A stretch of 64,000 bases of DNA from Acidobacteriota bacterium (GTDB lineage: Bacteria > Acidobacteriota > CAIWXX01). Under the pieces are notes generated by a model that did no database searches, was not told the origin of the DNA, and worked only from the letters and a program-made list of their open reading frames with translations. The stretch spans positions 256,001 through 320,000 of the forward strand of contig JBFMAF010000036.1 of NCBI GenBank assembly GCA_040755995.1, read 5' to 3'. Position numbers and translations under genes: made by a program. This document shows positions 47,184 through 63,302 of this stretch, in pieces; the first letter of the stretch is position 1; each line of letters starts with the position of its first letter.

Positions 47184-49229
47184 CTATCGGCTGATCTTCA
47201 TGGTGAGCACCCCGGCCCCCCCGGTGCCCGCCAACAGGGTACTCGGCGCTGAAGGATTGATCGCAAGCGCTCCTATGTACGCGTTCGCCATTCCTGCGCT
47301 TGACATCGCCCTCCAGCTGGCACCTCCATCCTCGCTCACGTACACACCACGACCATAGGTGCCGAGATATACCCTTGTCGGAGCAATCGGGTCAATCGTC
47401 AGCGAGCACGGCGTTGTATAGTCCGGTAGGTCAGGTGTTAGCCTGCTCCAACCGCCTCCTCCGTTCGTGCTCTTGTACACGTCATATGGCCAGACCAATG
47501 CGTAGAGGTTGCTGGGCGTCACAGGGTCGACCGTCAGGGATTCCACCAGTTGGCGCTCCAGGCCGCGCCTGGCGGCCTGCCAGCTACTGCCTCCGTTGGT
47601 ACTCTTAAGGACCCCATCTCCGGTCCCAACGTAGATGGTACCCGACCTTCCTGGGTCGACAGCCAGTGATCTTGCGTACGCATAATGTGGCAATACGACG
47701 CGATGCCAGTGAGAGCCCGAGTCGCTACTCTCGAAGAAGTCGCCCAATAGTACAGCGTAGAGGGTAGATGTCTTCTTCGGGTCGATTGCCAGTGCGTCGA
47801 GGTAGATAGCGTCTACCTGACGGGGCAGTCCCTCATCTGCGGCACTCCAAGTCCCACCTCCATCCGTGCTCTCGAGCACGGCTGGGCCATCCGAGCGCCC
47901 ATTTGTGTATAGGGTAGATGGGATCTGAGGGTTGACCGCGAGTGCCAGGATGCTATGTCCCGAAGGGTCCCCTAGCACCTTCTTCCAGGATCGGCCTCCG
48001 TTCGTGCTCTTGAACAGGCCCGTCATCTGCGTCCCAGCGTATACTATGCCTGGTCTGGCCGGGCTGGTCGCGAAGGTCGTGACCATGGTGTTCGCGATAC
48101 CGCTATTGGAGGAACGCCAGCTCTCGCCTCCATCCGTGCTACTGAACAGACCGGAGTGGGTGGCGCCACAATACACCGCGAGCGGCGTCGCGGGGTCAAC
48201 GGCCAACGCTTGCACTGCCACGGCCAGAGGTCTCATGGTTGGCAGGCCATTGTTCATGTCGCTCCAACTCGCGCCCCTGTTTGTGCTCTTGAAGACTCCG
48301 CGCATCGATCCGGCATAGATGGTAGAGGGGTTCGTTGGGTCGATCGCCAAGTCTACCACGTAGGGGTCTTCCGGAATGCCTCGACTGATAGGGAACCAGT
48401 GGCTGCCACCGTCCACCGTGTAGAAGATCCCCCCCAGGTAACCGGTCTGGGCAGCATAGACTCTAGGGGGTGTGCTCTCCTCAAGCGCAATGGCAGTAAT
48501 GCGGCTATTCTCTGAAATCCACCCATGATTGATGGGCGTCCAAGAACGGCCCTTGTTCGTGCTCGTGCGCACTCCACCAGTAGTTCCGGCATAGATGGTC
48601 TCAGGTTCACTGCGCGTAATAGCCAGAGCGTTCACGATCAAGCCCAACAACCCAGCCTTGCACTCAACCCAACGGTCACCGCCATTGGTGCTCTTGTACA
48701 GTCCTCCCATGCCCCCTGCGTACAAGGTCGTCGGCGTCGCAGGATCAACAACCAAAGCGAGCAGGTCAGTGTTCGTCAGTCCGATGCTAGCCGCGCGCCA
48801 GGTAGCGCCCCCATCTGTGCTCTTGAAGATACCTCCAGCGGTTGCAGCGTAGATCGTCGCCGGTGCTCCAGGATCGATGGCGAGCCGACTAATGACAGTG
48901 TTGTCCAAACCCTTATTTATTGCGCGCCAGGAATTGCCCCCGTTTGTGCTCTTGAAAACGCCACCTCCTTCTTCGTCGCCGGTGTCATAGCCGGTGGCGT
49001 CCACACCGCTCCGTAGGCGGTGGTCAAGCGTAAACTTTCCCTGAATCCCGGTCCCCAGGTAGATAGTAGCAGGGGCGGACGGAACAATCGCAATTGCGCT
49101 CACGCTGCCCCCGAAAGGGCCATGGCTGGTCCATGTCTCTACTCCGCCTGAGGTTGTTGGCTCAGCCGGAACTGCAACGGTGACAATCGATATCAAGAAC
49201 AAGGAGCCAGTTCGTCGCTGTCGCTTCAT
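47184..49229 (-). CDS. Secreted BNR/Asp-box (VPS10/sortilin-like) beta-propeller protein
   Basis: Signal peptide; about 12 repeats of GxFKSTNGGxSW...LAIDP. Confidence 0.88.
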   Translation of the reverse strand: MKRQRRTGSLFLISIVTVAVPAEPTTSGGVETWTSHGPFGGSVSAIAIVPSAPATIYLGTGIQGKFTLDHRLRSGVDATGYDTGDEEGGGVFKSTNGGNSWRAINKGLDNTVISRLAIDPGAPATIYAATAGGIFKSTDGGATWRAASIGLTNTDLLALVVDPATPTTLYAGGMGGLYKSTNGGDRWVECKAGLLGLIVNALAITRSEPETIYAGTTGGVRTSTNKGRSWTPINHGWISENSRITAIALEESTPPRVYAAQTGYLGGIFYTVDGGSHWFPISRGIPEDPYVVDLAIDPTNPSTIYAGSMRGVFKSTNRGASWSDMNNGLPTMRPLAVAVQALAVDPATPLAVYCGATHSGLFSSTDGGESWRSSNSGIANTMVTTFATSPARPGIVYAGTQMTGLFKSTNGGRSWKKVLGDPSGHSILALAVNPQIPSTLYTNGRSDGPAVLESTDGGGTWSAADEGLPRQVDAIYLDALAIDPKKTSTLYAVLLGDFFESSDSGSHWHRVVLPHYAYARSLAVDPGRSGTIYVGTGDGVLKSTNGGSSWQAARRGLERQLVESLTVDPVTPSNLYALVWPYDVYKSTNGGGGWSRLTPDLPDYTTPCSLTIDPIAPTRVYLGTYGRGVYVSEDGGASWRAMSSAGMANAYIGALAINPSAPSTLLAGTGGAGVLTMKISR

Positions 49230-49248
49230 GGTCACGCCTCAGTGTCGA

Positions 49249-49611
49249 TCAGTAGTCATCCGACAGGAGTCCAACAGTCCTGAGCTCCCTCAGGAGCTCC
49301 GGCCTGGCTTCGCGAAGCCTCCTAACGCGCTTTCGCTTGTAGGGCGCTATCTCGGCCACCTGACGAACCAGCATCGCCAGCGACGCGATTCGCTCCTCGG
49401 ATGAGCCTATCAGTTCCTGGAGTCGAAGGACGTTCTTCTCTGAAATATGCGACTGCGTCATGAGTCCCAAGACCTCATCCTCTTGCTCGATCCTCGCAAT
49501 CATCTCCGCGGGGAGTCGCTGACACTTCTTGCATATGTGGCGGACGTGACCCCGGCCAGAGAATTGCTCGTTCGGCCGGGACTTTCTACAGATACGGCAA
49601 TAGTGACTCAT
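49249..49611 (-). CDS. Hypothetical Cys/His-rich (putative Zn-binding) protein
   Basis: MSHYCRICRKSRPNEQFSGRGHVRHICKKC; ATGA overlap with the Mo-subunit stop. Confidence 0.75.
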   Translation of the reverse strand: MSHYCRICRKSRPNEQFSGRGHVRHICKKCQRLPAEMIARIEQEDEVLGLMTQSHISEKNVLRLQELIGSSEERIASLAMLVRQVAEIAPYKRKRVRRLREARPELLRELRTVGLLSDDY

Positions 49612-51986
49612 GTTTCCAGAGCCCCGCGTTCCTTCTCGCGAAGCGCTGCGACAATCTTCTCCGGGGTGATCGGCAGGTCGCGGATGCGGATGCCGATGGC
49701 GTCGCAGATGGCGTTGGCGATGGCGGGGGCGGTCGGGACGAGGCCGGGTTCGCCGACTCCTTTGGCTCCGAAGGGGCCCGCGGGGTCGTTCGTTTCGACG
49801 AAGGCGACATCGATCGGAAAACTCATGTCTCCGGCGGTCGGGAGCTTGTAGTCGGTGAAGCTCGGGTTCAGGATGCGGCCGCGCTCGGTGCGCACCTCCT
49901 CGTAGAGCCCGTAGCCGATCCCCTGCGCCAGCGCTCCGTAGATCTGCCCGCGCAGGGCCTGCGGATGCAGCACGCGCCCGACGTCGTGCACGGCGACGAT
50001 CCGCAGAATACGCACGTCGCCCGTCTCTTCGTCCACTTCGACTTCCACACCTTGCGTTCCGAATGCGTAGGTCGCCGACATGTTGCCGAGGCCCTTCTCC
50101 CAATCGGGGAGCTCCGAAGGCGGGTCGTAGAACGCTTCCACGGTCAGCATGTTTCCTCCAGGACGGAAGTGGATCCCGCGCAGAATCTTCCCGAGCTCGA
50201 TCGGCGCGCGGGGGTCGGAGGCGAGCGGCCCATCCTTGAGGAAGAGCCGGCCATCGGCGAGATCGAGCAGGCCCGGGCGGATCTCGCCGATATCGGAGTG
50301 CCCGCGTAGAGCTCGCCTCAACTCCTCAGCGTACACAGGCGCGGCCAGCTCAAAGAGACGCTCCCGCAGCTTCGCGGCCGCGAGCGCGACGGCCGAGAGC
50401 GCCGTGAACGCGCCGCGGCTCGCGTGCGTCCCCACGTCCCACGGACACGTGGCGGTGTCGGTCTGGTTGACGATGACGTTCTCGGGACGCACACCGACGA
50501 ATTCGGCGACGCCTACCGCGAGCGCTGCGTGGTGGCCCTGCCCCATTTCCACACCGCCCGCGTACACGTATACGTTGCCGAAATCGTCCAGACGCATGAT
50601 CACACCGCTGGCATCCGAGCGGTAGATGCGCCCGGAACCTCCGACGTGCATCAGCGATGCGATCCCGACACCGCGCCGCTTCGACCGGCCCTTCCCCCGC
50701 TTCTCACTCCACCCGAGCCGAGCGGCCGTCTGATCGATGCACTCGGGAAGACCGCACGTTCCGATCTTCAGGCCCATCGGAGTCACATCTCCGGGCCGGT
50801 TGCTGTTGAGACGCCGGATATCGAGCGCATCCATGCCGGCCGCTTCGGCGAGCTCATCCAGGTTGCTCTCGATGGCCCAGGTCACCTCCGGGTTTCCATA
50901 GCCGCGCATGGCCTGGCAGTACGTGTTGTTCGTGTAGACGATCTGCGCTTCGAAGCGCACGGCGGGCACCCGATAGAGCGACGTCGCGGGCAGCATCATC
51001 ACGCCGGGGTACGTCGCTCCCCACGACGTGTAGGCGCCGTTGTCCTGCAGCACGTCGATCTCGCGGAAGGTGAGCCGGCCCGAGCTGTCGCAGCCCTGTT
51101 CGATCGACACGACAGCGCACTGGCGCGGCGACAGATACGCGAACTCCTCCTCGCGCGTGTAGAGGATCTTCACCGGGCGCCCCGTCGCGCGGGCGAGCAG
51201 GATCGCGATGTATTCGTAGGCGTGTGTGTCGAGCCCCGTGCCGAAGCCGCCGCCGAGTGCCGGCACGATGACGCGGCTGTTGCGGCCGGGGAGGCCCATG
51301 TCGGCCAGCGCGCGGTTGAAGTCGCGCTGCGCCAGGAACGGGATCTGCGTCTTCGCCCAGATCGTCAGGTTGCCGCGATCGTCCATCTCGGCGATGCAGC
51401 CGGCCGTGCCCATGCAGCTCTGCTGGATGCGCGGCACCGAAAACTGCCCGGAGACGATGTGCGCCGAGCGTCGCCGGGCCTCCGGCAGGTCGCCCGAGAC
51501 ATGGCGGAACGTGAGCGGCACGCGGTTGTCCGCTCGAGGCTTGCCCGAAGGGTCGGTTTCGTGCACAAGAGGCGCGCCCTCGGCGAGCGCCTCGCGCGGA
51601 TCGAACACACCGGGCAGCGGCTCGTACTCGACGCGAATCGCATCCACAGCCTCGGCCGCAATCTCCGGATCGATCGCCGCCACCGCCGCCACCTCGTCGC
51701 GGAACTGCCGGACCTTGCCCTTCTTGAGCGCGAAGTTGTCGCGAAGGAAGCCGATCCGCACCTCGGGCGTGTTTGACGCCGTCAACACGGCACACACACC
51801 AGGCATGCGCTCGGCGCGCGATGCGTCGACATTCACGATCCGGGCGTGAGCGTGCTCGGAGAATTTGATCTTTCCGTAGAGCATCCGCGGGCGCGTGATG
51901 TCATGGATGTACTCGGCCGCACCGCGTGCCTTGGCGCCGGCATCGGGTCGCGGGATCTCTCTGCCGATGAACCGGTGCTCGCTCAT
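49608..51986 (-). CDS. Xanthine dehydrogenase family molybdopterin-binding large subunit
   Basis: LGGGFG, AMRGYGNP, EMGQG, THASRG, GAKGVGEP; start re-called at MSEHRFIG. Confidence 0.93.
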   Translation of the reverse strand: MSEHRFIGREIPRPDAGAKARGAAEYIHDITRPRMLYGKIKFSEHAHARIVNVDASRAERMPGVCAVLTASNTPEVRIGFLRDNFALKKGKVRQFRDEVAAVAAIDPEIAAEAVDAIRVEYEPLPGVFDPREALAEGAPLVHETDPSGKPRADNRVPLTFRHVSGDLPEARRRSAHIVSGQFSVPRIQQSCMGTAGCIAEMDDRGNLTIWAKTQIPFLAQRDFNRALADMGLPGRNSRVIVPALGGGFGTGLDTHAYEYIAILLARATGRPVKILYTREEEFAYLSPRQCAVVSIEQGCDSSGRLTFREIDVLQDNGAYTSWGATYPGVMMLPATSLYRVPAVRFEAQIVYTNNTYCQAMRGYGNPEVTWAIESNLDELAEAAGMDALDIRRLNSNRPGDVTPMGLKIGTCGLPECIDQTAARLGWSEKRGKGRSKRRGVGIASLMHVGGSGRIYRSDASGVIMRLDDFGNVYVYAGGVEMGQGHHAALAVGVAEFVGVRPENVIVNQTDTATCPWDVGTHASRGAFTALSAVALAAAKLRERLFELAAPVYAEELRRALRGHSDIGEIRPGLLDLADGRLFLKDGPLASDPRAPIELGKILRGIHFRPGGNMLTVEAFYDPPSELPDWEKGLGNMSATYAFGTQGVEVEVDEETGDVRILRIVAVHDVGRVLHPQALRGQIYGALAQGIGYGLYEEVRTERGRILNPSFTDYKLPTAGDMSFPIDVAFVETNDPAGPFGAKGVGEPGLVPTAPAIANAICDAIGIRIRDLPITPEKIVAALREKERGALET

Positions 51987-52459
51987 CTCTCCCCTCTCCG
52001 CAGCCCCGCTGCCGCGTGGACGGCCTCGACGATTTGCACATATCCTGTGCACCGGCAGATGTTCCCGACAAGTGCATCGCGAATATCGGACTCGCTGGGA
52101 GTGGGGTTTCGGTCCAGCAGCGCCTGTACCGACAGGATCATTCCGGGAGAGCAGAACCCGCATTGGATTCCGCCTTGCTCCACGAATGCCTGCTGAACTG
52201 CCGATAGCTCGGTTCCGCGCGGCAGGCCCTCGATCGTCGTGACCTCCCGCCCCTCCGCCTCGAGAGCCGGAAAGAGGCAGGAGTTAACCGGTCGCCCGTC
52301 CACCAGCACGGTACACGCCCCGCACTCACCCTTGCCACAGCCTTCCTTGGTCCCCGTCAAATGAAAGTGGTCACGCAGGACTTCCAGAAGCAGTTTGCTC
52401 CCCTCGACCTCGCCCAATACCGGCGAGCCATTGAGAGTGAATGCGAGGGGATGCTTCAT
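51983..52459 (-). CDS. Xanthine dehydrogenase family 2x[2Fe-2S] small subunit
   Basis: [33 protein letters not shown]. Confidence 0.95.
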
Positions 52460-53316
52460 GGTCTTGCCTGCCCCAGGAGCGTTTCCAGAGCGCGTCTCAC
52501 GAAGACGCCGGTGATGTGTCTCCGGTATTCTTCACCGGCACGCAAGTCGCAAATCGGGGCTACGCTCTCGCGCGCAAGATTCGCCGCGGCCAGGAGGAGA
52601 TCGCGTTTCATCTCTTGCCCGGTCAGCAGGCGTTCGACGGATTCAAGTCGTCGAGGTGTCGGGGCCACCGAACCGACGGCTACGCGCGCTTTCACGCAAG
52701 TGGCTCCATCCAGCTCGAGCAGGACAGCGACGCTCGCGAGCGCGAGGTCCATGGCGACGCGTCTCTTCTTGAAGAAAATCGCACGAGCGTTCGGCGCAGG
52801 TGGGTCTAGGACCACACCCGTGACGAGGTCATGCGGCCCGAGGCGCGTCTGTCGAGGCCCGAGGAAGAATTCTTCGAGCGGGATCTCGTCTTCCTGCCCG
52901 CCCGGGCGACGGACGGCGAGTCGCGCCCCCAGTACCAAGAGCGGCGGGGCGGTGTCGGCGCAGGGGCTCGCCGTGCAGAGATTGCCGCCCACGGTCGCCA
53001 CGTTTCGGATCTGCACCGAGCCCATCGAAGCCATCGCCTGCACCAGGACCGGGAAGCGTGAGGAAAGTGCCGGGTCGCCGATGCAGTCAGCGATCGGTGT
53101 GGCCGAGCCGACTCGGACGAAGCCGTCTGCACGCACGCCGGAGAGCTCCGCGATGCGGCGAAGCGAGACCAGCGCCGCCGGGCTCTCTTTGCGTTCCTTC
53201 ATGCGCACAATCAGGTCGGTGCCGCCGGCCAGATACTTCGCACCTTCTGTGCGCGCCTTCAACTCCTGCGCCTCTTCCACACTACGCGGGCGCAAGAACT
53301 CGAAACGCCCCCTCAT
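52456..53316 (-). CDS. Xanthine dehydrogenase family FAD-binding medium subunit
   Basis: LAGGTDL, QIRNVATVGGNLCTASPCAD, VGSVAPTP. Confidence 0.93.
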   Translation of the reverse strand: MRGRFEFLRPRSVEEAQELKARTEGAKYLAGGTDLIVRMKERKESPAALVSLRRIAELSGVRADGFVRVGSATPIADCIGDPALSSRFPVLVQAMASMGSVQIRNVATVGGNLCTASPCADTAPPLLVLGARLAVRRPGGQEDEIPLEEFFLGPRQTRLGPHDLVTGVVLDPPAPNARAIFFKKRRVAMDLALASVAVLLELDGATCVKARVAVGSVAPTPRRLESVERLLTGQEMKRDLLLAAANLARESVAPICDLRAGEEYRRHITGVFVRRALETLLGQARP

Positions 53317-54527
53317 GCGATAACTCCTTCTTGCCGCAACGCGGCGACTTCACTTTCACGCAGCCCGGCCTCCCGCAGCACCGCATCGGTGTGCTCGCCG
53401 TATGCCGGAGCAAAGGGCAGCTCGCCTCCGCGACTCTCGAGGTGCGGCGTCGAGACCGCCGGCGGCGGCAAACGGACGAGACGGCCGTCGGGGGCCAGTG
53501 TTCGGAGCGCCGCCGCTTTCACGAAGTCCAGATCGGCAACCTTATCAACCGGCGTGATCGGCGCATGCGGTACCGTCGCGGCTCGGAGGACCTCGGCCAC
53601 TTCGGCAAACGAGTGCCGGCTCGTGATCTCCTCGATCGCGCGAAAGATGTCCGCCTTGTGCGCGCGGCGCCCTTCATTCGTCGCGAATTCGCCGCGCCCG
53701 AGCGCCGCGAACATCGGATGGCGCGACAGGCGCTGCCACTGCGCGTCGCTCCCGATCGCAATGTAGATGTATCCGTCGCGCGTACGATAGGCGTTCACCG
53801 GAATGAACTGGCGATGCTCATTGCCGGCGCGGCGAAGCTCGGAGGGCGGGCTTCCCATGTCGAGCATCGGCAGGAAAGTGTGCAGCCACGACACCGCCGC
53901 CTGCGCCATCGATATGTCGATGCGCTTCCCACGGCGGGTGCGATCGCGCTCGGCCAGCGCCAACATCACCTGCAGAAACGCTTCGTCCCCCGCTTTGAGG
54001 TCGATCAGCGGCGGGCCGCACTGGAGCGGCGGGCCGTCGGCGTGGCCGGTGAGGTCCATGTAGCCGCAGAGCGCCTGCAGCATCGGATCGTAGCCGGGAA
54101 CGTCCGGGTAGGCCGAGCCCATCGCCGAAATGCAGCACCAGACGAGCTCAGGGCGAGCCGCCGAGAGCGTCTCGTAGTCTATCCCAAGCTCGGTGTGGCG
54201 CGCGGGCAGCGTGTTCGTGCAAAAGACGTCCGCAGGCAGCTCGCGCACGAGCCGCAGCAGAAGTTGTCGTCCTTCCGGACGTTTCAGATTCAGCGCAATC
54301 GCTTCCTTGCCCACATTCGGCGCGACGTAGTAGCTGTGGCGGTCATCGCCGGCGATCCTACGGCCGACATACCGGTTCGGGTCTCCCTTGGTCTCGCGCC
54401 CTGAAGCCGGTGTCGGCTCGACGCGAATCACGCGGAGGCCCTGATGGACGAGGCGCAGCGTGGCGTAAGACATCGACAGTGCCTGTTCGAGCGCCAGGAC
54501 AAGGGGCACGTTCTTGGAAGCCGGCAC
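53313..54527 (-). CDS. Class III (CaiB/BaiF) CoA-transferase
   Basis: VIRVEP, GDPNR, NVGKEAIALNLK, PGYDPMLQA, PLIDLKAG (catalytic Asp position), PAYGEHT. Confidence 0.9.
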   Translation of the reverse strand: MPASKNVPLVLALEQALSMSYATLRLVHQGLRVIRVEPTPASGRETKGDPNRYVGRRIAGDDRHSYYVAPNVGKEAIALNLKRPEGRQLLLRLVRELPADVFCTNTLPARHTELGIDYETLSAARPELVWCCISAMGSAYPDVPGYDPMLQALCGYMDLTGHADGPPLQCGPPLIDLKAGDEAFLQVMLALAERDRTRRGKRIDISMAQAAVSWLHTFLPMLDMGSPPSELRRAGNEHRQFIPVNAYRTRDGYIYIAIGSDAQWQRLSRHPMFAALGRGEFATNEGRRAHKADIFRAIEEITSRHSFAEVAEVLRAATVPHAPITPVDKVADLDFVKAAALRTLAPDGRLVRLPPPAVSTPHLESRGGELPFAPAYGEHTDAVLREAGLRESEVAALRQEGVIA

Positions 54528-54621: not shown

Positions 54622-56649
54622 CTACAACCGCACCCGTTCCACGTAGGTGCCCAGCTCGTCCTTGAGCGTTGCACAAACCTCGCCGACGGAGGCATACGCA
54701 GAAACCGCCTCGAGGATCGGTGGCATGACGTTGTCGTGGGCTCGCGCCGCCTCACGCACTCGCCGCAGCAGACTCGCCACCGCCGCTCCGTCTCGCTCGC
54801 GCCTCACCCGTTCGAGCCGTGCGATCTGCCGCCGCGCCTCCTCTTCTCGATACGGGTGCATTTCCACAGGATGCGGCTGCTCCTCCTCGCGGCAACAATT
54901 CAGGCCGACCTTCTTGATGGCCCCACTGCGTATCTGTTTCTCGCGCTCATAGGCGCTGCGATTGACCGCAGCCTGCACGCGGCCGTCGGCGATCGCCGGG
55001 ATGATCCCGCCCTGCGAGCTGATCTCTTCGAGAATCCTCTCGATCAGCGATTCCATCTCGTTTGTCGTGGATTCGACAAACCACGACCCGGCGAGAGGGT
55101 CCACAGTGTCGCAGGCCCCTACCTCGTACATCAGGATCTGCATCGTACGCAGCGACAGACGCGCCGCGTGTTCGCTCGGGATCGTGTAAGCCTCGTCGTA
55201 CGAGCACAGTGCCATCGTCTGCGTGCCGGAAAGGGCGCTGGCGAGGGCGTAGTAGGCGCCGCGCGCGATGTTGTTCTCGGGCTGCTCGATTGTGAGCCCG
55301 GCTCCGCCGCCGCCTGCGATCATGCGAAGCTGCATGGCGCGCGGGTCCTTCGCACCGTAGCGCTCGCGCAGGATCCGCGCGTAGAGCCGCCTTCCGGCGC
55401 GGAACTTCGCCACCTGCTCCCAGAGGTTTCCATGTATGTCGAAGTTGAAGGATAGCCCCCGCGCCACTTCGTCAACCGCGAGCCCTCGCGACATCATGTG
55501 ATCGACATAGGCGAAGGCGATCGCGAGCCCGTAGGCCATCTCTTGCGCCGGCGTCGCACCGGACTCGCGGATGTGGTAGCCGCACACGGACACCGGGTTG
55601 TAGTGAGGGACGTGCTCGGCGCAAAACGCGATCGTGTCGCCAACGAGCCGGACGCTGTCTTCGACCGGGAAGATCCACGTGCCGCGCCCGACGAACTCCT
55701 TGAGGATGTCGTTTTGCGCCGTACCGCGAAGCTGACCGAGCTCGAAGCCGCGCTTCTTCGCCATCGCGAAAAACATCGCCATGATCGGCGCAGCGGCGCC
55801 GTTGATCGTGAGCGAGACGGTGGTGCGGTTGAGGTCGATTCCCTCGAACGCCTCCTCGATGTCGGCGAGCGTGTCCACTGCCATGCCGACCCGGCCGACT
55901 TCGCCCGCGGCCATGGGGTCGTCGGAATCGAGGCCGCATTGAGTCGGAAGATCGAAGGCGACGTTGAGCCCCGTCTGCCCGTGCGCAATCAGGTACAGGA
56001 ATCGTTCGTGCGTTTCCGCGGCCGTCCCGAAGCCGGAGTACTGCCGCATGGTCCAGGGGCGCTGGCGGTACATCAGCGGGTGGATGCCGCGAGTGAAGGG
56101 GTACTCGCCCGGAGCACCGATGCCGTTCCAGCCGCCACTGGCTTCGACATCGCTCGCCGCATAGACGGGCTTTATCTCGATGCCGGACTCCCATCGCACC
56201 TCGCGGGACTCGACACTCGTGCGCACGGCGGCGGCAACGGGCGCCGCGGCCCTGGCGGTTCGCCCTCGGATGAACGTCACGATATCTTCGAATGAAGCTC
56301 CTGTTGGAAAAACTGCGGCGACGCCGAGTTGCATGAGCGCCTCATGATCGCGCGGCGGCACGTTCCCGCCGACGATCAGGGTCGCGCAATCCATGATGCC
56401 TGCCGCGCGCAGCTCTTCCACCACACGCTCGCACAGCGGCACGTGGGCGCCCGAGAGAATCGAGAGGCCCACGACATCGACATCCTCGTCTCGCGCGGCG
56501 CGCGCAATAGCTTCGGGACTCTGGCGCAGCCCGGTGTAGATGACCTCCATGCCCGCGTCCATGAGGGCGCGGCAGATGAGCTTCGCGCCGACATCGTGCC
56601 CGTCCAGGCCGGGCTTGGCCACGAGCACGCGGACCGGCCGCTCGCTCAC
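54622..56649 (-). CDS. AdoCbl-dependent acyl-CoA mutase; N-terminal B12-binding domain fused to the catalytic barrel
   Basis: KPGLDGHDVG (DxHxxG), then PGEYPFTRG, WTMRQYSGF, AFDLPTQ, QNDILKE, GYHIRE, SYDEA. Confidence 0.93.
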   Translation of the reverse strand: MSERPVRVLVAKPGLDGHDVGAKLICRALMDAGMEVIYTGLRQSPEAIARAARDEDVDVVGLSILSGAHVPLCERVVEELRAAGIMDCATLIVGGNVPPRDHEALMQLGVAAVFPTGASFEDIVTFIRGRTARAAAPVAAAVRTSVESREVRWESGIEIKPVYAASDVEASGGWNGIGAPGEYPFTRGIHPLMYRQRPWTMRQYSGFGTAAETHERFLYLIAHGQTGLNVAFDLPTQCGLDSDDPMAAGEVGRVGMAVDTLADIEEAFEGIDLNRTTVSLTINGAAAPIMAMFFAMAKKRGFELGQLRGTAQNDILKEFVGRGTWIFPVEDSVRLVGDTIAFCAEHVPHYNPVSVCGYHIRESGATPAQEMAYGLAIAFAYVDHMMSRGLAVDEVARGLSFNFDIHGNLWEQVAKFRAGRRLYARILRERYGAKDPRAMQLRMIAGGGGAGLTIEQPENNIARGAYYALASALSGTQTMALCSYDEAYTIPSEHAARLSLRTMQILMYEVGACDTVDPLAGSWFVESTTNEMESLIERILEEISSQGGIIPAIADGRVQAAVNRSAYEREKQIRSGAIKKVGLNCCREEEQPHPVEMHPYREEEARRQIARLERVRRERDGAAVASLLRRVREAARAHDNVMPPILEAVSAYASVGEVCATLKDELGTYVERVRL

Positions 56650-57764
56650 GGATACAGCCCTCGCGCTATCGCGCCGCGCAGGATCTCGGATGTTCCTCCG
56701 CCGATGAGCGTGAAGCGCACGTCGCGCAGGTAGCGTTCGACGGGATACTCGCTCGCGAACCCGTAGCTCGCCATGACGCGGGCGGCGCGATCGCAGATGC
56801 GGAGCGCGGCCTCCGAGGCGAAGAGCTTCGCCATGGCTGCTTCATTTTCGTTGGGAAGCTTCTGGTCGCTTCTCCAGGCCGCCCAGTAGGTGAGCCTCCG
56901 CGCGGCTTCAAGATCGACGGTCATCTCGGCCAGGTGCTCCTGCACGGCCTGATGATCCTTGATCGGTTTCCCGAACTGCTTCCGTACGGCTGCGTACGCC
57001 ACGGCCTGTTCATGGGCCGCGGCGGCCACACCGAGTGCGAGCGCGGCGGTCATGACGCGGATCTCGGCCAGCACCTCCCGGAGGTAGGTGCCGCCGGCGT
57101 CCCTTTCGCCGAGGAGGCACGTGGCCGGCGTGTCGTCAAAAGAGACCTCGGAAGTGAGCGACGCGCGCACGCCCATCTTGTCGATGTCCTTGCCGATCGA
57201 CAGCCCGGGCGCCCCGGCTTCGACCAGAAATACCGAAAGGCTCTTCTCGCCCGTCTTCGCGAACACCGTGAACATCTGCGCCGCGCGGGCCGAGGTGACC
57301 CAGGTCTTGCAACCGGTCAAGCAAAAACGCCCATCACGCTCGACCGCGCGCGTCGTCATCGCCATGAGATCGCTGCCGGCGTCGGGCTCCGTCATGCAGA
57401 TGGCGCCGACGATTTCGCCTCTAAGAGCTCCCGGCAGCAGCCGCGCGCGCACCTCATCCTTTGCGAAACGCTGGACGAAAGTCGTCCCCATCAGTGACTG
57501 CAACGCGCAGGCAGCGGCTACAGAGAGGCTCCCGCGCGCGAGCTGCTCGATGGCGAGGACGTACGACACCACGTCGGCGCCGCTCCCATCTGGCTCCGGG
57601 TACCGCATGCCGAAAAGCCCGAGCTCCCCGGCGCGCCGGAAAAGCTCGTTCGGGAAGCGCGGGTTGCGGTCGAGCTCCGCGGCGGCAGGGCGCACCTCGC
57701 GCTCGGCAAAAGCGCGAAACGCCTCCTGAACCGCCCGCAGCTCTGCGGTCAGAGCAAAGTCCAT
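56646..57764 (-). CDS. Acyl-CoA dehydrogenase
   Basis: ICMTEPDAGSD, GCKTWVT, RKQFGKPI, AMAKLFASE, GGGTSEILR. Confidence 0.93.
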   Translation of the reverse strand: MDFALTAELRAVQEAFRAFAEREVRPAAAELDRNPRFPNELFRRAGELGLFGMRYPEPDGSGADVVSYVLAIEQLARGSLSVAAACALQSLMGTTFVQRFAKDEVRARLLPGALRGEIVGAICMTEPDAGSDLMAMTTRAVERDGRFCLTGCKTWVTSARAAQMFTVFAKTGEKSLSVFLVEAGAPGLSIGKDIDKMGVRASLTSEVSFDDTPATCLLGERDAGGTYLREVLAEIRVMTAALALGVAAAAHEQAVAYAAVRKQFGKPIKDHQAVQEHLAEMTVDLEAARRLTYWAAWRSDQKLPNENEAAMAKLFASEAALRICDRAARVMASYGFASEYPVERYLRDVRFTLIGGGTSEILRGAIARGLYP

Positions 57765-57823
57765 ATGTTGCCCATCTTCGCGAGCAGGCCGTTCATCGCA
57801 GGGAATTCCCGGACCACCGGTCC

Positions 57824-57862
57824 AGAGTAAAGCCTCCCGCAGCTTGTGTCAATACTGTTGAC
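57824..57862 (-). promoter_or_regulatory. sigma70 promoter of the acyl-CoA dehydrogenase/mutase operon with overlapping inverted repeat
   Basis: Minus strand TTGACA(57852-47)-N17-TACTCT(57829-24); GTCAA-N5-TTGAC at 57848-57862. Confidence 0.65.
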
Positions 57863-57979
57863 CATGTTGCAGCTTCCGGGTTTCGAGTGGGTGACCACTA
57901 TGGGTTGTTGTCAGGAGACGCGAGTGCCGTTTCCCGGTACTTCTTTCGCTGCAAATAGGGCGCGCGCCGGGTTGCAACA

Positions 57980-58019
57980 GACGCGGAGACGCGGTGAGGG
58001 GGAGACGCGGAGACCCCGA
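57980..58019. repeat. 5 degenerate tandem octamers (GACGCGGA)
   Basis: gacgcgga gacgcggt gaggggga gacgcgga gaccccga. Confidence 0.65.
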
Positions 58020-58029
58020 CGGAGGGCAC

Positions 58030-58243
58030 GCGTTGCATCGCTGCCGACGCGGTAGATCGTTTCAACACCTAGCCCGCCGCGTTGGCGGCCGGCCCCGGCC
58101 GAGTCGCGCAGGTATTCGTGCTTGATCAGCGTGTGCGGCGTCATGTGCTCGAACATCTCGCAGTCCTGGTCCAGGACGCCGCCCGAGGCGTCTATCATCC
58201 CGATGTGGTCGTAGCCGTCGCAGTCGCGCATCGCGCCGGAGCC
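58030..58243 (-). pseudogene. Internal fragment of a hydantoinase B/oxoprolinase family gene
   Basis: GSGAMRDCDGYDHIG...EMFEHMTPHTLIKHEYLRDSAGAGRQRGGLG. Confidence 0.75.
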
Positions 58244-58582
58244 AGGTTGGTCAGACAGGTGTGCATCCCTTCCGGATCCAGCGGCGCATCCCGGATCTTA
58301 TCACGAAGGTTGCAGCGCAGCTCGATGCCGATCTTGCGGGCAACGTCGGGATAGACTGGAATTCCTGTCAAGAAGGAGTGGCCGGCCGTACTCCTGGCTC
58401 AAGTTCCTTCTGTTCTGTCTCCTTCTGTTTCTCGTTCTGGCCACCGCGGCAAACATGTGCCTGGAATACCTGTTCGCCTGAGCTGGATCACAGCACTGCC
58501 GCCGGCGGTTCGTCTGAGAATTCCGACAGCCCGATTCCTACTGCGTCGATTCGGATTCGGGTGGTGGCGGCGGAACATTCTC

Positions 58583-58672
58583 AGGGGCCGGGGCCTGCCG
58601 CGCACGACACCCGGACAGGATCGAGACCGCCAATGTCATCACGATGAACAGCAAGGCCAGACGCTTTTTCAT
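58583..58672 (-). pseudogene. Lipoprotein signal peptide followed by an early stop
   Basis: GGAGG RBS, MKKRLALLFIVMTLAVSILSGC (lipobox), TGA after 29 codons. Confidence 0.5.
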
Positions 58673-58686
58673 TCTTTCCTCCACGA

Positions 58687-59049
58687 TCATTTTGTTAACT
58701 TATGATTCCTTCCCGCCGACCGGGTCAAAGTTACTGCGGCAGCCTGTTCGGATCGATAAGTCTCCAATAGTTTGGGCGGCAAAGCAGTGATGGCGTCAAC
58801 CTCGAACGGCGGATCCGGGTGCATGCCCGCAATCTGATTCAACTGCGTGACTGCCAGGTTGATGCTGCTGCTGATCCTCTCGGAGTTTTCCGGAGTCACC
58901 CCCTGGATTTCGATGATCGTCATCGCCACGCCGATATTGCCCGCCGCATTGAAAACCAGCCGCTGCATCTCGTTTGCCGACGCGTGCTGCGCAAAAAACA
59001 GTAACAGCACCGCCCCAACTGTTGGAATCGACAAAATGCGTCTTTTCAT
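58687..59049 (-). CDS. Secreted hypothetical protein (possibly truncated)
   Basis: GGAGGGAG RBS; signal peptide ending ASA. Confidence 0.6.
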   Translation of the reverse strand: MKRRILSIPTVGAVLLLFFAQHASANEMQRLVFNAAGNIGVAMTIIEIQGVTPENSERISSSINLAVTQLNQIAGMHPDPPFEVDAITALPPKLLETYRSEQAAAVTLTRSAGRNHKLTK

Positions 59050-59089
59050 CCTCCCCTCCGGCGCGGTGATCCTGCACCGCGCAAGAGCT

Positions 59090-60028
59090 TTATTCTTTCA
59101 CAAGCAACACCAGGTCCCGGCCCCATTGCCCGAAATCGGTGACAAGCCAGACCTGAAAGGTGTAGGACCCCGGTTGTGCCGAACCAGGAATCGGGAATTG
59201 AATCTCGTGCGCGTGCAGGCCGTTCCCTTTCTGCAGGGCGTCCTTTCGCGGGTTCGTGAGAAGTGCATTGCCGTCGAAAAGAACCTGCAGGCGCACATTA
59301 ACCGCGGTCTCCTGTGCAGAAGCGAGTCCCGCCACCTGGAACGAGAGTTTGACCGTGACCTTTTCGCCTTTTCGAATCTCCGCGGGCTGTACTTCGGCGG
59401 CGACCAGTTCCACTTTCGGCTCGGACCCGGGTTGCGGAGGCGGCGGCGGGACAACAGGCGGCGGGGCGCCGTCTCCGAACTTCTCGTCGGGTCTGGATTC
59501 CATCGCATCGGCCGTCACTTCGCCCTCCACTGTCGCAACATTGCGCAGCGCCTGCACGATCTTTTCCGGGCGGACGTCGGTGGAGGTCAGCTTGCGGCCG
59601 AAATGGATCTGAATGCGCGTTCCCAGCTCGAAGAGACGCTGCTTCTCCGCATCTTTCCAGTCGTACGCAAACACGCTGCCGCCGCTGTTGACATTGAGCA
59701 CGACGTTGTCCTTGCGCACTTCCACCTCGCGGATGGTAGCGCGCTCTCCGCGGAGCACCGAGGGCGGACCGATCCGGAGCGTCTTGAGATAGAACTCCCG
59801 GTCGTAGTCTCCGTTCCAGACCACCACGAGCGCTTCGGCTACCGGGAAATCGACCTTCGGAACGATGGCCTTTCCTGTGAGATACCGTTTCAGGTTTTCT
59901 TTCTCCGCCTCTGTTGCCAGACCCGCCTGCAGCAGGGAAGAAGACGACAGAACAAGACAGAGAGCAGTCAGGGCGACGCTACACGCGGAAGAACCACGGA
60001 GTCCTTTGTTCGTCATTTCCGACTGCAC
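59090..60028 (-). CDS. Secreted hypothetical protein with Pro-rich linker and Ig-like C-terminal domain
   Basis: Signal peptide, APPPVVPPPPPQP linker, beta-rich tail (PGSYTFQVWL). Confidence 0.7.
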   Translation of the reverse strand: MQSEMTNKGLRGSSACSVALTALCLVLSSSSLLQAGLATEAEKENLKRYLTGKAIVPKVDFPVAEALVVVWNGDYDREFYLKTLRIGPPSVLRGERATIREVEVRKDNVVLNVNSGGSVFAYDWKDAEKQRLFELGTRIQIHFGRKLTSTDVRPEKIVQALRNVATVEGEVTADAMESRPDEKFGDGAPPPVVPPPPPQPGSEPKVELVAAEVQPAEIRKGEKVTVKLSFQVAGLASAQETAVNVRLQVLFDGNALLTNPRKDALQKGNGLHAHEIQFPIPGSAQPGSYTFQVWLVTDFGQWGRDLVLLVKE

Positions 60029-62661
60029 AAGCTGTTTGCCCGGGCCTGAATCTGGGCCTGGGTTCCCGTGGCGATCAGCTTCATGTTGGTGACCCGGGCA
60101 TACTCCTGAGGTGTCATGCCATCGTCATCGCCATCGCCAAATCCCATGACCATGTAGTTCTTGCAGCCCGCATCGTGCAGGAGCAGGCCCCAGGAGACGG
60201 GGTCCGGGGCGGAGACAGTGTTGATGGAGCAGCACTCCCCGGGGGACTGGCCTCCCGGAGGGGTTTCGCCTGTGCCGGTCGGGCCGGGCGCTGCAGGTGC
60301 AGGTGCGGACGGCTGACGCGTCATGGTCTTCTGGACTTGAGTCAGGATGTCGCGGATTTGGGCTGCGGCTTCCCTTCGACGGCGATCGCGCTCAGCGATC
60401 CTGTCCCGTTCGCTTGCCGAGGCGCCTCTGGTCTGCGCGTTTTCGATCTCCGCAATCATGTCCTTCGCCCTGGCGCGTTCGCAGGGGCCGCCCTCGATGC
60501 GGCGCAGCGAGCCGAGAGCCCCGTCGTAGTCATCGGTTTGAATCTGCGCGTAGGCCTGGCTGAGCATCTGTTCGGCAAACGCCTGCTTTTGGGCCAGGTT
60601 CCGCATCCGGGGCAGGTCCTTTGCGATGCGCGGGTCCGCGGGATGCAGGCCGGCGGCCTGTTCCATGAACTGGATGGCGCTTCGGTAATCGCAGGCCGGC
60701 GCATCGGCCAGCGCTTGCGCCGTGCGGATGAGCGCATCGGCCTGGGCCTGCCCGGCGGATGGCGGCGACGCGCCTCCGCCCTGCGACGAACCCCCGACAG
60801 TTGCCCCGCCGACTGCCGCTTCCCAGTCTGCGGCTCCGGCGGCGGGGGACCCGGTCCGATCCGGTGGCGCCTGTTGCAGGGATGCTGCAGCATCGGCGCA
60901 CTTCCGGGCGTTGGCCGCGGCGTTGTTCGCGGGTTCCACGAGCAGTTCGGCGGCGTCCACCCAGGTGGTCGTTTCGGCGATCAGGCCGGCATCCCACTGC
61001 GGTTCCGCGATGCCGCTCAGGCCGGCGGAGACGGACTGCAGAAAGGCGGAAAGGGTGCGGACCCTGTTCGCATGAGCAGCGAGTGGATTCTCCAGCCCGG
61101 CGGCCAGAGAAGCGACGGTCGACGCGTGCGATTGAATCCGCGCGTAGAGGTTTTCGAACTCTTTGCGCAGCCCGGCTGCCTGTTGCGCGTCGGGATGCGT
61201 GGAGAGCAGCTTCAACCCCTCCTGCAGATAGCCGGCGCTCTCGTTCTGGACGGCCCTGATCTCCTGGGCCATGGCCGAAATCTCTGCGATCTTGCCCTCC
61301 CCATCGACAATCGCCTCTTCCAGCGGCTTCAGGGCGGACGAGAGACGATTCGCTTCGGCACGGGCACTCCGCAATTCCTCGGAGAGAAGCGACCCGGAAC
61401 CGGACATTTGATTCAACTGGGCCAGTGCCTGGTTTGCGCGGTTCCATTCACTGTCTGCGATTCTCGCGTTCGACTCCGCCTCGGCGGCGGCCGACTGGAT
61501 GAGAGGCAGAAGCCGGCTGCGCTCCGCCGCGTCGGCGGAGTTCTTCAGGGTCTCGGCAGAACTGCAGGCTTCCAGGGCTTTCTCCCGCGCAAGACCCCGT
61601 GCCGTCGCCACCCGGTTGCACGCGGCCTGGATCTCTGCCGAGGATTGGGCGGCCTGCCGGGGCAGTTGCCCGATTTCCGCTGCCCGGGCGTTGATCCGGG
61701 ATACGGTGTCCTGAAGCGCCCGGGCTCCATGATCCAGGATCGCGATCGTCTGATCCCTTGCAGCCTGACTGCTGCTCATTCCCGATGCCGTCTGCTGCGC
61801 TTTCCCGGCAATCGACGCGGCTCGAGCTGCGGCATCGCGCATCTTCTGAAGGAGGTCGTCGACCGATACGCCGGCCTCCGCCGGGGGCACCGCCGGCGGA
61901 GTCCCGACTGCGGCCAGAAGCTCGCGGCAGCGATCCAGCTTCCACGCGTAGATGTCGCGAAGCTTCTCGAAATCGGCCCGGATGCCGAGCTTCGCGTCCC
62001 AGCTTTGAACAAAACTCCGGCTGATTTGATAGTGCTTGTGCTGCACGCCGCACGACGCGTCCTCAGTGTCCTGCCACGTGTATGGTCCGCTCAGATTCTG
62101 CTGGCCGCCCCCCTTCCATTTCTCCTCCAGGAAATCCCATCTCTTGACCAGGGACTCGCATGCCTTCGGATCTGTTGCCGAGGTGGCTTTGAATTGATCT
62201 TCGAACTTCACGAGCAAGCCCAACCAGGCGATTCTGGACTCCTGCAGATCCATGTACGTTTCCTCGGGCCCGCATTCTTCGCCACCTTCCAGCCGGATGC
62301 GGTGGTGGACCGCCTCGTGCCACAGGCTGACAGGAGCCTCGGAAAGGTTGATCGTCCGTACCACCAGCAGGTGGTTCTTCACCCCTCGCGGTAAGCGCGC
62401 CTCGGAAGGGTAGTACTTGCCTTGCACAAGCAGATCCGGATCCAGCTGGATGTCGAGATCCGCGAAGAGATCGCCCCGCATGTCGGCCCTGGAGCCGGGA
62501 TTCACGGCTTCGTAGAACAGGTAGGCCCGGTATCCGTCCAGAAAGTCCCCGAGGATGATTGCGACGGACGAATTGAGGCTGGTATCCTCGCCGGCCGCGG
62601 GGGATGTCGCGAAGAGCGGAAGCAACAACAGCGCGATCAGGCATGCGGGCTTTCGTTGCAC
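60013..62661 (-). CDS. Secreted protein with HExxH motif, long Ala-rich coiled coil and Cys-containing C-terminus
   Basis: AAGGAG RBS, signal peptide, LWHEAVHH...EETY. Confidence 0.75.
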   Translation of the reverse strand: MQRKPACLIALLLLPLFATSPAAGEDTSLNSSVAIILGDFLDGYRAYLFYEAVNPGSRADMRGDLFADLDIQLDPDLLVQGKYYPSEARLPRGVKNHLLVVRTINLSEAPVSLWHEAVHHRIRLEGGEECGPEETYMDLQESRIAWLGLLVKFEDQFKATSATDPKACESLVKRWDFLEEKWKGGGQQNLSGPYTWQDTEDASCGVQHKHYQISRSFVQSWDAKLGIRADFEKLRDIYAWKLDRCRELLAAVGTPPAVPPAEAGVSVDDLLQKMRDAAARAASIAGKAQQTASGMSSSQAARDQTIAILDHGARALQDTVSRINARAAEIGQLPRQAAQSSAEIQAACNRVATARGLAREKALEACSSAETLKNSADAAERSRLLPLIQSAAAEAESNARIADSEWNRANQALAQLNQMSGSGSLLSEELRSARAEANRLSSALKPLEEAIVDGEGKIAEISAMAQEIRAVQNESAGYLQEGLKLLSTHPDAQQAAGLRKEFENLYARIQSHASTVASLAAGLENPLAAHANRVRTLSAFLQSVSAGLSGIAEPQWDAGLIAETTTWVDAAELLVEPANNAAANARKCADAAASLQQAPPDRTGSPAAGAADWEAAVGGATVGGSSQGGGASPPSAGQAQADALIRTAQALADAPACDYRSAIQFMEQAAGLHPADPRIAKDLPRMRNLAQKQAFAEQMLSQAYAQIQTDDYDGALGSLRRIEGGPCERARAKDMIAEIENAQTRGASASERDRIAERDRRRREAAAQIRDILTQVQKTMTRQPSAPAPAAPGPTGTGETPPGGQSPGECCSINTVSAPDPVSWGLLLHDAGCKNYMVMGFGDGDDDGMTPQEYARVTNMKLIATGTQAQIQARANSLCSRK

Positions 62662-62859
62662 GGCTCCTTTATATACGAATATGGTTCGCTGTCAAGAAAG
62701 AAACGCTGATGAGCCTCAGCGGCCCTGCGGTTGGTGGGTCAGTAGAACGTCCGAACGGCTGTCCATGTCGTATTGCGGACCGAGTCGGTTCGGGAGATAA
62801 TTTGATCGAGACACTCGATTTCAGCTCTCCAGCGAGGGAGAGCCTACACGCTGCACTGG

Positions 62860-63025
62860 CTAGTAGCTCCGGTTCGCACGCAGGCGGGCGGTTTCTTCGG
62901 CGAGCACCTCGCAGGTGTCGGGATCGAGGGCCACGCCGTAGTGGCGGCGGGCGCTTTCGAGCGAAAGGATGCCGTCGCGGACTTCCCTGTCCATCTCCTC
63001 CGAATCAGGATTCCGCCATCCGGAG
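62860..63025 (-). pseudogene. C-terminal fragment of a hydantoinase B/oxoprolinase family gene, fused to an unrelated hydrophobic N-terminus
   Basis: GWRNP...REVRDGILSLESARRHYGVALDPDTCEVLAEETARLR. Confidence 0.65.
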
Positions 63026-63110
63026 ATGATCCCGTCGAGAGCCCCGCTCACCAGGATCGCCAGGGCAAGAACGACGAGCGCAATGAACCGGACCATCGAT
63101 CGCATGCGTG

Positions 63111-63143
63111 TGTGATATCACAATGTAGTTTGACGTCAAACTA
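63111..63143. promoter_or_regulatory. Two adjacent perfect palindromes (candidate operators)
   Basis: TGTGATATCACA (63111-63122) and TAGTTTGACGTCAAACTA (63126-63143). Confidence 0.6.
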
Positions 63144-63302
63144 ACTGGTCGATGTGGTATCATGCGCAACTGTCAAGCAGCTACGGATGCCAAGAACCAA
63201 CGACATCACCACCGGGCGCCCGCAAAGAGGTATCATGGCCCGGCGTCCGACAGGAGGCAGCCCGGAGGTGTGGATCGTGTGCAATGCGCGGATGGGTGAG
63301 TC

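Follow-up and report, generated by a model that had tools for sequence, protein, structure and literature searches.

A single-chain orthologue of the IaaG/IaaH acyl-CoA mutase, encoded beside iaa-type genes in an Acidobacteriota genome

Introduction

Among adenosylcobalamin (AdoCbl)-dependent acyl-coenzyme A (CoA) mutases, the closest described relatives of the protein studied here are IaaG and IaaH of Aromatoleum aromaticum, which belong to the iaa pathway, a bacterial route for degrading the plant hormone indoleacetate. PMC8360864 names IaaGH a phenylsuccinyl-CoA/benzylmalonyl-CoA mutase, places it between IaaL and IaaF, presents an assay showing oxidative decarboxylation of benzylmalonyl-CoA by IaaF, and gives the IaaF accession (WP_011236983/CAI07262), its cloning primers and its hallmark, a GGG replacing YEG. 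Here we analyze a 64,000-nucleotide stretch of an Acidobacteriota genome (contig JBFMAF010000036.1, positions 256,001 to 320,000; hereafter the window), in which one open reading frame (ORF) of the minus strand combines both kinds of mutase subunit. Sequence comparison and gene context show that this ORF is a single-chain IaaG+IaaH orthologue, an AdoCbl mutase that would probably convert 2-(2-aminophenyl)succinyl-CoA into (2-aminobenzyl)malonyl-CoA in the breakdown of indoleacetate or tryptophan.

Solved relatives resemble the window mutase in different respects. Methylmalonyl-CoA mutase (MCM; P. shermanii 1REQ/4REQ, human 2XIJ, M. tuberculosis 6OXC) shares the barrel, the DxHxxG domain and the Tyr/Arg/Gln/His/Glu residues, but is about 36% identical, carries its B12 domain at the C terminus rather than the N terminus, and has HxQTSG and HTN motifs that are replaced in the window. 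The best solved match is HcmAB, the 2-hydroxyisobutyryl-CoA mutase (HCM; 4R3U; 476.5 bits, Z 53.4, 44% identity), which has a similar large-plus-small organization; it differs in having Ile (RQIAGF) and Gln-Lys at the positions of Tyr204 and Gly-Arg322, and in retaining HCQT and HTN in the aligned columns. IcmF (4XC6) likewise bears a B12 domain before the barrel in one chain, and residues 3-673 of our model align to its chain 24-1093; in IcmF, however, a MeaB-type G-domain separates the two domains in place of the linker of about 20 residues, identity is about 30%, and the window protein is set apart by its Tyr/Arg pair. Ethylmalonyl-CoA mutase, reportedly described by Erb et al. in 2008, is said to keep the dicarboxylate contacts, while its changes at the sites of His328 and Asn366 are said to accommodate a group attached to that same carbon. 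By comparison, the substituent in the window mutase would be an aryl group and not a methyl, and the rebuilt region also takes in Gln330-Ser332.

Results

One ORF carries both mutase domains

The mutase gene and its parts are located as follows.

54622..56649, minus strand: fused IaaG-IaaH-type AdoCbl-dependent acyl-CoA mutase, single ORF of 675 residues
56260..56637, minus strand: N-terminal cobalamin-binding domain, IaaG-like, residues 5-130 (TIGR00640 over 5-130, PF02310 over 7-118)
56200..56259, minus strand: Ala-rich linker of about 20 residues (131-150), with a predicted local distance difference test score (pLDDT) below 50 at 134-145
54625..56199, minus strand: substrate-binding TIM-barrel domain, IaaH-like, residues 151-675 (PF01642; profile match 154-673)
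56029..56046, minus strand: RQYSGF, from residue 202, with Tyr204 aligned to the Tyr of MCM RQYAGF
55675..55698, minus strand: EFVGRGTW, from residue 318, with Arg322 aligned to the Arg of MCM EFMVRNTY
55291..55329, minus strand: LRMIAGGGGAGLT, residues 441-453, the IaaH-family signature replacing MCM LRTHSQTSGWSLT, located where barrel strand 7 ends
55189..55218, minus strand: TMALCSYDEA replacing MCM SLHTNSLDEA around barrel strand 8, with Glu486 (MCM Glu370) kept

Both domains scored above the Pfam cut-offs (PF01642, 623 bits; PF02310, 91 bits), and the DxHxxG motif of the B12 domain reads DGHDVG at residues 16-21 (Asp16/His18). An AlphaFold2 model built from a 102-sequence alignment has a mean pLDDT of 91 and consists of two domains joined by a low-confidence linker (134-145); its barrel superposes on 4REQ with a root mean square deviation of 1.5 Å over 525 residues (Z 52.5). 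With a barrel, a DxHxxG-bearing B12 domain and this match to 4REQ, the protein belongs to the MCM superfamily of AdoCbl acyl-CoA mutases. An initial annotation made from the sequence had placed the mutase at 54622..56200, an interval that covers the barrel but misses the in-frame N-terminal B12-binding domain and the linker, since the ORF reaches 56649; every motif that it quoted does lie within this one ORF. The linker stands where split relatives have an overlapping stop/start junction.

Dicarboxylate-type residues are kept beside a rebuilt glycine-rich motif

Residues were assigned MCM numbers by a hand count on the 1REQ alignment, the MCM number being the chain index plus one, an offset that we assume. 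Aligned to the solved structures, Tyr204, Gln312, Arg322, Tyr358-His359 and Glu486 match conserved MCM residues. The changes relative to MCM are T327M, H328I, S329A, Q330G, T331G, S332G, H364A, T365L and N366C, with E370 retained, which puts Ile444 at the His328 site and Cys482 at the Asn366 site. NNIARGAYYAL begins at residue 459 and TQTMALCSYDEA at residue 476. In the aligned columns, the solved P. shermanii MCM has SLRTHSQTSGWSLT and TQSLHTNSLDEA, and the host's own MCM, on contig C13, reads LRTHCQTSGWS and HTNSFDEA. Together with HCM, these proteins bear out the canonical readings on which the initial annotation had relied. Its description of the swaps, from His/Gln/Thr/Asn to Gly/Ala/Cys, needs correction at His328, which has become Ile rather than Gly; the glycine-rich segment that it put at about 55298-55332 is present, at 55291-55329.

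In the predicted model, Met443-Gly446 form the seventh barrel strand and residues 478-480 the eighth. The C-terminal strand ends of such barrels make up the active-site face. At the level of secondary structure the glycine run is predicted to begin at the C-terminal end of strand 7, and so does not map away from that face, an outcome that would have told against the earlier proposal. The glycine-rich patch likely provides room for an aromatic ring.

The accessible text of PMC10481361 describes AdoCbl as bound at the interface between the two domains and makes no mention of Q865 or N901; that of PMC4413051 has MCM Glu370 contacting the adenosyl group, four residues beyond Asn366. This proximity is one of the points for a different account of the Gly/Cys swaps, compatible with an aryl-rearranging mutase, in which they would chiefly re-shape the 5'-deoxyadenosyl site for a resonance-stabilized aminobenzylic radical and not the acyl pocket. 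MCM Gln330 and Asn366 (Gln865 and Asn901 in IcmF), which we take to contact the adenosyl group, are both lost in the window mutase, and handing hydrogen back from 5'-deoxyadenosine to a benzylic radical would be energetically unfavorable, judging from bond energies. The changes at His328 and Asn366 in ethylmalonyl-CoA mutase, which we take to be to Gly and Pro and to fit a methyl on the same substrate carbon, favor instead the steric reading. We regard a primarily adenosyl-directed role as rather unlikely, though worth keeping in view.

The window mutase and IaaGH are reciprocal best matches within one clade

Reference sequences were located through the published iaaF primers. The forward primer matched one of 401 genomes searched (G133), and in the locus concerned, L082, the two primer sites bracket a single 377-residue gene (P0122) whose protein is identical to WP_011236983/CAI07262. 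The next two genes encode a small (P0133, CAI07263, 139 residues) and a large (P0136, CAI07264, 537 residues) mutase subunit, to which we assigned the labels IaaG and IaaH by gene order after iaaF. IaaB of this locus carries its database name; for the remaining genes we presumed the letters A, C, E, I, J, K, L, M and Q from their order and family.

The window mutase is 65% identical to P0136 over 523 residues and 54% identical to P0133 over 127 residues. P0136 contains LRMIAAGGGGGLT, NIVRGAYYAL and TQTMALCSYDEA, and thus shares the glycine-rich and ALCSYDEA motifs as well as the Tyr/Gln/Arg/His/Glu set. Best matches were reciprocal: the window mutase scored 762 bits in G133 (next mutase, 358), and the search of the host genome returned it at 687 bits (next mutase, 440). 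In a 59-row tree drawn from 189 collected large-subunit sequences (this and the other trees being quick trees), the window protein and P0136 fell in one clade with a Shimodaira-Hasegawa-like approximate likelihood ratio test (SH-aLRT) value of 100 and a branch length of 2.26. Within that clade, a proteobacterial group is separate from the group of the window protein, which holds records from Planctomycetota, Myxococcota, Acidobacteriota, Actinomycetota and others. Both systems also have the mutase right after iaaF in small-then-large order. They differ in that A. aromaticum uses two overlapping genes and the window one polypeptide, in that the window has Gly for Ala at the Gln330 position, and in that its CoA-transferase gene precedes those for the molybdenum enzyme. 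The comparison with the Iaa mutase, which the initial annotation had named, is thus positive in sequence, rebuilt motifs, reciprocal matches and neighborhood, and argues for its suggestion of an aryl succinyl/malonyl-CoA mutase. The specificity that it called non-standard would have a precedent, being that of a family already described.

The motif pair separates the IaaH family from methylmalonyl-CoA mutases

A homologue search scored 8000 candidates, and the best 120 clusters, the window's own protein included, were examined along with 80 genome loci retained of 178 confirmed, 66 of which yielded a near-full large subunit. The pattern [LMF][RK]MIAGGGG occurred in 119 of the 120 top clusters, the exception being an alignment gap, while ALC[SC][YFH]DEA, the Tyr/Gln/Arg/Tyr-His set and the Glu were present in all 120. 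Among loci with a large subunit at least 58% identical, 53/54 had the glycine motif; below 58%, 11/12 retained HTQT/HTNS. The two misses of the glycine motif are alignment gaps. Because the motif is shared by 119 of 120 top clusters, it is not the product of chance or sequencing error.

An ordinary or promiscuous MCM with a drifted loop would account for the MCM-type Tyr and Arg and for the name methylmalonyl-CoA mutase that databases give to the relatives. We find this extremely unlikely: the protein reaches 588 of the 876 bits required by the NCBIfam MCM equivalog, the motif is fixed in 172 of 174 family sequences, the gene context is of iaa type, and the host has a separate canonical MCM. 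MCM proper was rejected on that score and on the replaced HxQTSG and HTN motifs. Isobutyryl-CoA mutase (ICM) and IcmF were rejected on Tyr204/Arg322 (Phe/Gln at these sites being what we take as the ICM mark), on a score of 295.5 of 1500 bits and on the lack of a G-domain in the Pfam scan, and HCM on its RQIAGF against RQYSGF in the window.

The host genome (G000; 99.84% complete; its contigs are numbered with C, and C36 contains the window) has further B12 enzymes. The MCM gene on C13 adjoins a MeaB-family gene, one of two in the host. A stand-alone large mutase subunit on C28 (156181-157758, minus strand) has Phe/Gln at the Tyr/Arg sites and is presumably ICM-type, and a stand-alone B12-binding subunit is found on C55 (336603-336986, minus strand).

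Two other kinds of mutase locus were seen among the loci. L063 and L066-L080, mostly Desulfobacteraceae/Deltaproteobacteria records, hold large-then-small pairs with Tyr/Arg and HTQT/HTNS, often followed by an FEG acyl-CoA dehydrogenase. A distinct mutase in L064 (9911-19952; a Paradesulfitobacterium ferrireducens record) reads MLFFAGTGGST and TVNTKDEG, retains Tyr/Arg, adjoins a hydantoinase pair and a molybdenum hydroxylase, and is a long-branch sister of the IaaH clade; it may act on another substituted succinyl-CoA.

The mutase lies in a tight run of iaa-type genes

The mutase is one of a tight series of minus-strand genes, the others being:

56646..57764, minus strand: IaaF-type decarboxylating acyl-CoA dehydrogenase with GGG replacing YEG, 55% identical to P0122, its stop overlapping the mutase start
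53313..54527, minus strand: family III CoA-transferase, IaaL-like (PF02515), 56% identical to the L082 CoA-transferase
52456..53316, minus strand: flavin adenine dinucleotide (FAD) subunit of a xanthine-dehydrogenase-family molybdenum hydroxylase, IaaI-like, 37%
51983..52459, minus strand: 2Fe-2S subunit, IaaJ-like, 47%
49608..51986, minus strand: molybdopterin subunit, IaaK-like, divergent, 42%

FTLIGGGTSE is common to the window IaaF-like protein and P0122. The molybdopterin subunit is a best match both ways, its match in G133 being the iaa-locus gene (among the 3 matches listed, so that paralogues may be missed). An indolepyruvate oxidoreductase (Ior) and the hydantoinase pair IaaC and IaaE are encoded some 15 kb upstream, on this contig and likewise on the minus strand, in the order iorA, iorB, iaaC, iaaE (host C36:328934-336876); iaaC and iaaE are intact and 57% and 70% identical to the reference. 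The nine pathway genes in the window or nearby, counting the mutase once and IorAB apart, are all full-length frames.

Neighbors were counted in flanks of up to 10 kb, many on short contigs. An IaaF-like gene (at least 50% identity) accompanied 50 of 56 glycine-motif loci and none of 13 canonical-motif loci; two of the six glycine-motif loci that lacked it (L007, L065) start at the mutase. As related loci are not independent, these counts show linkage and not many separate events. IGGG[TS] occurred in 5/13 canonical loci, which we do not count as a failure of the IaaF marker: the matches listed from those loci lie in an unrelated motif, presumably of aspartyl-tRNA synthetase, and the dehydrogenases of those loci read FEG.

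Directly after the molybdopterin gene, in the place of the thiolase in sister loci, the window has a BNR-repeat beta-propeller protein (47184-49235, minus strand), and then an ADOP/FtsX-type permease ORF (45495-47036, minus strand) that comprises only the C-terminal two thirds of its family profile (272-803 of 803).

IorAB takes the place of the CoA ligase in the window's group

Loci less than 74% identical to P0136 had IorAB in 12/25 cases and a CoA ligase in 0/25, while those at or above 74% had a CoA ligase in 22/33 and Ior in 0/33. Uninterrupted Ior-C-E-F-G-H-L-I-J-K order was found in L001, L003, L005, L010, L012, L020 and L026. PMC13290082 deals with indoleacetate production by 2-oxoacid oxidoreductases. 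The replacement of the ligase by Ior suggests, at the level of gene content, that this pathway is entered from tryptophan. The host IorA (L083:15424-18876, minus strand; 1150 residues) carries a fused NAD(P)/FAD oxidoreductase module, which is GltD/NfnB-like and has additional 4Fe-4S motifs, and the same two modules stand side by side before iorB in L001, L003, L005, L009, L010, L012, L013, L015, L020 and L026; the fusion may pass electrons directly to NAD(P)+.

These same features raise the alternative that the window's group performs the same chemistry on another arylsuccinyl-CoA, derived for example from a ring-substituted indole or an Ior-fed aryl-pyruvate. The group branches separately from the IaaH proteins of proteobacteria, next to them (SH-aLRT 93), has the Gly/Ala difference at the Gln330 position and a divergent molybdenum enzyme (about 42%), and shows the Ior-for-ligase replacement; Ior enzymes take several aryl-pyruvates. 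The hydantoinase pair nevertheless remains IaaCE-like, which fits lactam opening on oxindole, and the remaining signature residues are identical to those of P0136. We judge a different aryl substrate improbable.

Fusion of the two subunits is recurrent

The single-chain form was found in 1/58 readable loci (the frameshift-ridden L021 was left out) and in 10/120 clusters, with differing linkers; split pairs are mostly joined by an overlapping stop/start. In a 29-row tree, the fused state requires 4 changes, and a single fused clade was rejected by the approximately unbiased test (p-AU 0.002). Fusion is therefore recurrent and not particular to the host genome. No fused iaaGH or Ior-linked iaa cluster was found in the open-access literature, outside of which the founding papers and their supplements lie.

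A 15.2-kb block interrupts the operon

Between iaaE and iaaF lies a 15.2-kb block (C36:313765-328933, that is, window 57765-64000 plus L083:1-10933), which contains degenerate copies of iaaE.

58031..58242, minus strand: degenerate iaaE (hydantoinase B) internal fragment, 212 bp, sharing 90% identity with the complete iaaE of this contig and located some 270 bp upstream of iaaF
62879..62986, minus strand: second degenerate iaaE copy (3' end), 108 bp, inside the block, 86% identical

A third piece within the block measures 183 bp (86% identical), and two of the three end at or near the iaaE stop. The block looks like repeated insertion at the iaaE 3' end with target duplication; an assembly artefact would also be possible. 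It further encodes an integron-type integrase broken by an in-frame stop (L083:7640-8932, plus strand; its two pieces score 231 and 220 bits to TIGR02249, in both cases below the cut-off), with more integrase-like matches on C30, C33, C34, C47 and C55. Neighboring genes of the integrase encode a signal peptidase II, a class V aminotransferase and a protein of the metallo-beta-lactamase fold, whose best match is SoxH-like and whose scores lie far under every beta-lactamase cut-off. Three ORFs of 120, 312 and 882 residues (window 58687-62661, minus strand) have signal-peptide-like starts and no Pfam match. Just downstream of the 212-bp iaaE fragment, an element of about 40-55 bp (window 57973-58020) has look-alikes on C10, C24, C33, C36, C42 and C55 (83-93%) and is possibly a repetitive extragenic palindromic (REP)-like repeat. 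Upstream of iaaF, the promoter scan accepted no sigma-70-type candidate; a TTGACA hexamer there was rejected as a promoter, its second hexamer matching at just 3 of 6 positions. No Rfam match was found in the window or L083.

The host encodes a candidate for later ring reduction

On C29, a Bam-type cluster begins with the gene for a BamB-like tungsten reductase (1150 bits to 4Z3W). The cluster (L108:229-10986, minus strand) comprises eight genes resembling those for class II benzoyl-CoA reductase (bamB to bamI type), with Fe-S, CCG, HdrA-like, MvhD-like and Nuo-like genes, and a thiolase and an acyl-CoA dehydrogenase of glutaryl-CoA dehydrogenase size are encoded at a distance of about 15 kb. 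As candidates for class I benzoyl-CoA reductase, the HGD-D-family genes on C32, C35 and C37 were rejected, all being below the Bcr/Bzd cut-offs.

Discussion

For a single-chain IaaGH, we propose the following pathway. In the window's group, IorAB would convert indolepyruvate to indoleacetyl-CoA, the molybdenum enzyme would oxidize it, and IaaCE would open the lactam. Lactam opening would leave CoA on the acetyl side, and IaaL would transfer it to the carboxyl beside the aryl carbon, so that the mutase substrate would be a succinyl-CoA bearing the aryl group on C2, which would explain the MCM-like carboxylate and thioester contacts. The cobalt would be ligated by His18 of the DxHxxG loop and the ribose gripped by Glu486; the free carboxylate would be held by Tyr204/Arg322 and the thioester by Gln312/His359, as for succinyl-CoA in MCM. 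The 5'-deoxyadenosyl radical would abstract hydrogen from the CH2 beside the carboxylate, the CoA-thioester would migrate, and the aminobenzylic radical would then regain hydrogen. The ring would sit on the carbon equivalent to the methyl of methylmalonyl-CoA, so that space is needed there, and this could come from the Ile-Ala-Gly-Gly-Gly-Gly strand end and Ala-Leu-Cys. The product, (aminobenzyl)malonyl-CoA, would be decarboxylated by IaaF, and a BamB-type reductase would treat the ring.

Several observations weigh against this assignment. A complete A. aromaticum-type iaa cluster was not found in the host, which has IorAB upstream instead: single-query searches gave 36-38% at best for the iaa thiolase (IaaA), 32% for the enoyl-CoA hydratase/3-hydroxyacyl-CoA dehydrogenase (ECH/HADH) fusion of sister loci, 36% for the CoA ligase (IaaB), and no match for the binding protein (IaaM). 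IorA and IorB fell below the NCBIfam IOR cut-offs (alpha, 613.8 of 650.9; beta, 162.8 of 205.8). The subunits of the molybdenum hydroxylase share just 37-47% identity with those of the reference, against near 80% (large subunit) in most proteobacterial loci, so that the upstream substrate could differ. The 15.2-kb block cuts the operon. No IaaGH assay was found in the open-access literature as delimited above, and by our analysis the function of the reference IaaGH is a pathway proposal anchored on its assayed neighbors IaaF and IaaL. Finally, the roles given here to His328, Gln330 and Asn366 of MCM are assumed ones.

Some of these points would also fit an IaaGH orthologue stranded in a decaying relic pathway and no longer serving indole breakdown in the host: the interruption, with its stop-broken integrase and three iaaE pieces, the failure to find thiolase and ECH/HADH partners with single queries, and the absence of a promoter passing the scan. 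An IaaH-type gene was moreover found in just 2/40 relatives searched (69-70%), neither from the host's family, a sparseness that fits lateral gain or frequent loss. Yet the six window genes and Ior, iaaC and iaaE are full-length open frames with intact catalytic residues, a close fused relative exists (P0003, 91% identical over the barrel), and the host genome offers 11 matches to the enoyl-CoA hydratase family, further thiolases and the Bam cluster. A relic seems to us slightly less probable still than a change of aryl substrate, and a working single-chain IaaGH remains the preferred reading.

Earlier publications describe the family, its proposed reaction and the operon, and the rebuilt pocket is the signature of that family, to which this protein adds a member. 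Beyond this, we tentatively suggest, while leaning somewhat against it, an undescribed route from tryptophan to aminobenzoyl-CoA in many uncultured phyla, in which IorA, fused to an NAD(P)H-type flavo-oxidoreductase module, would pass indoleacetyl-CoA directly to a divergent molybdenum hydroxylase without a ligase, and the repeatedly fused mutase would have dispensed with the Gln/Asn contacts to the adenosyl group that every solved relative has, so as to proceed through a stabilized aminobenzylic radical. I-A-[GA]-G-G-G together with A-L-C-[SC]-[YF]-D-E-A provides a clean marker that splits IaaH-type mutases from proteins labelled methylmalonyl-CoA mutase, and reveals the iaa pathway in phyla distant from the denitrifying Rhodocyclaceae. 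If that is true, the fused protein of the window could be used directly to obtain a first structure and first kinetic data for an aryl-rearranging B12 acyl-CoA mutase, its natural one-chain form easing such tests. The reaction would pass through a benzylic radical, with hydrogen return to that stabilized radical as its mechanistically interesting step, and would bear on how B12 enzymes keep radicals productive.

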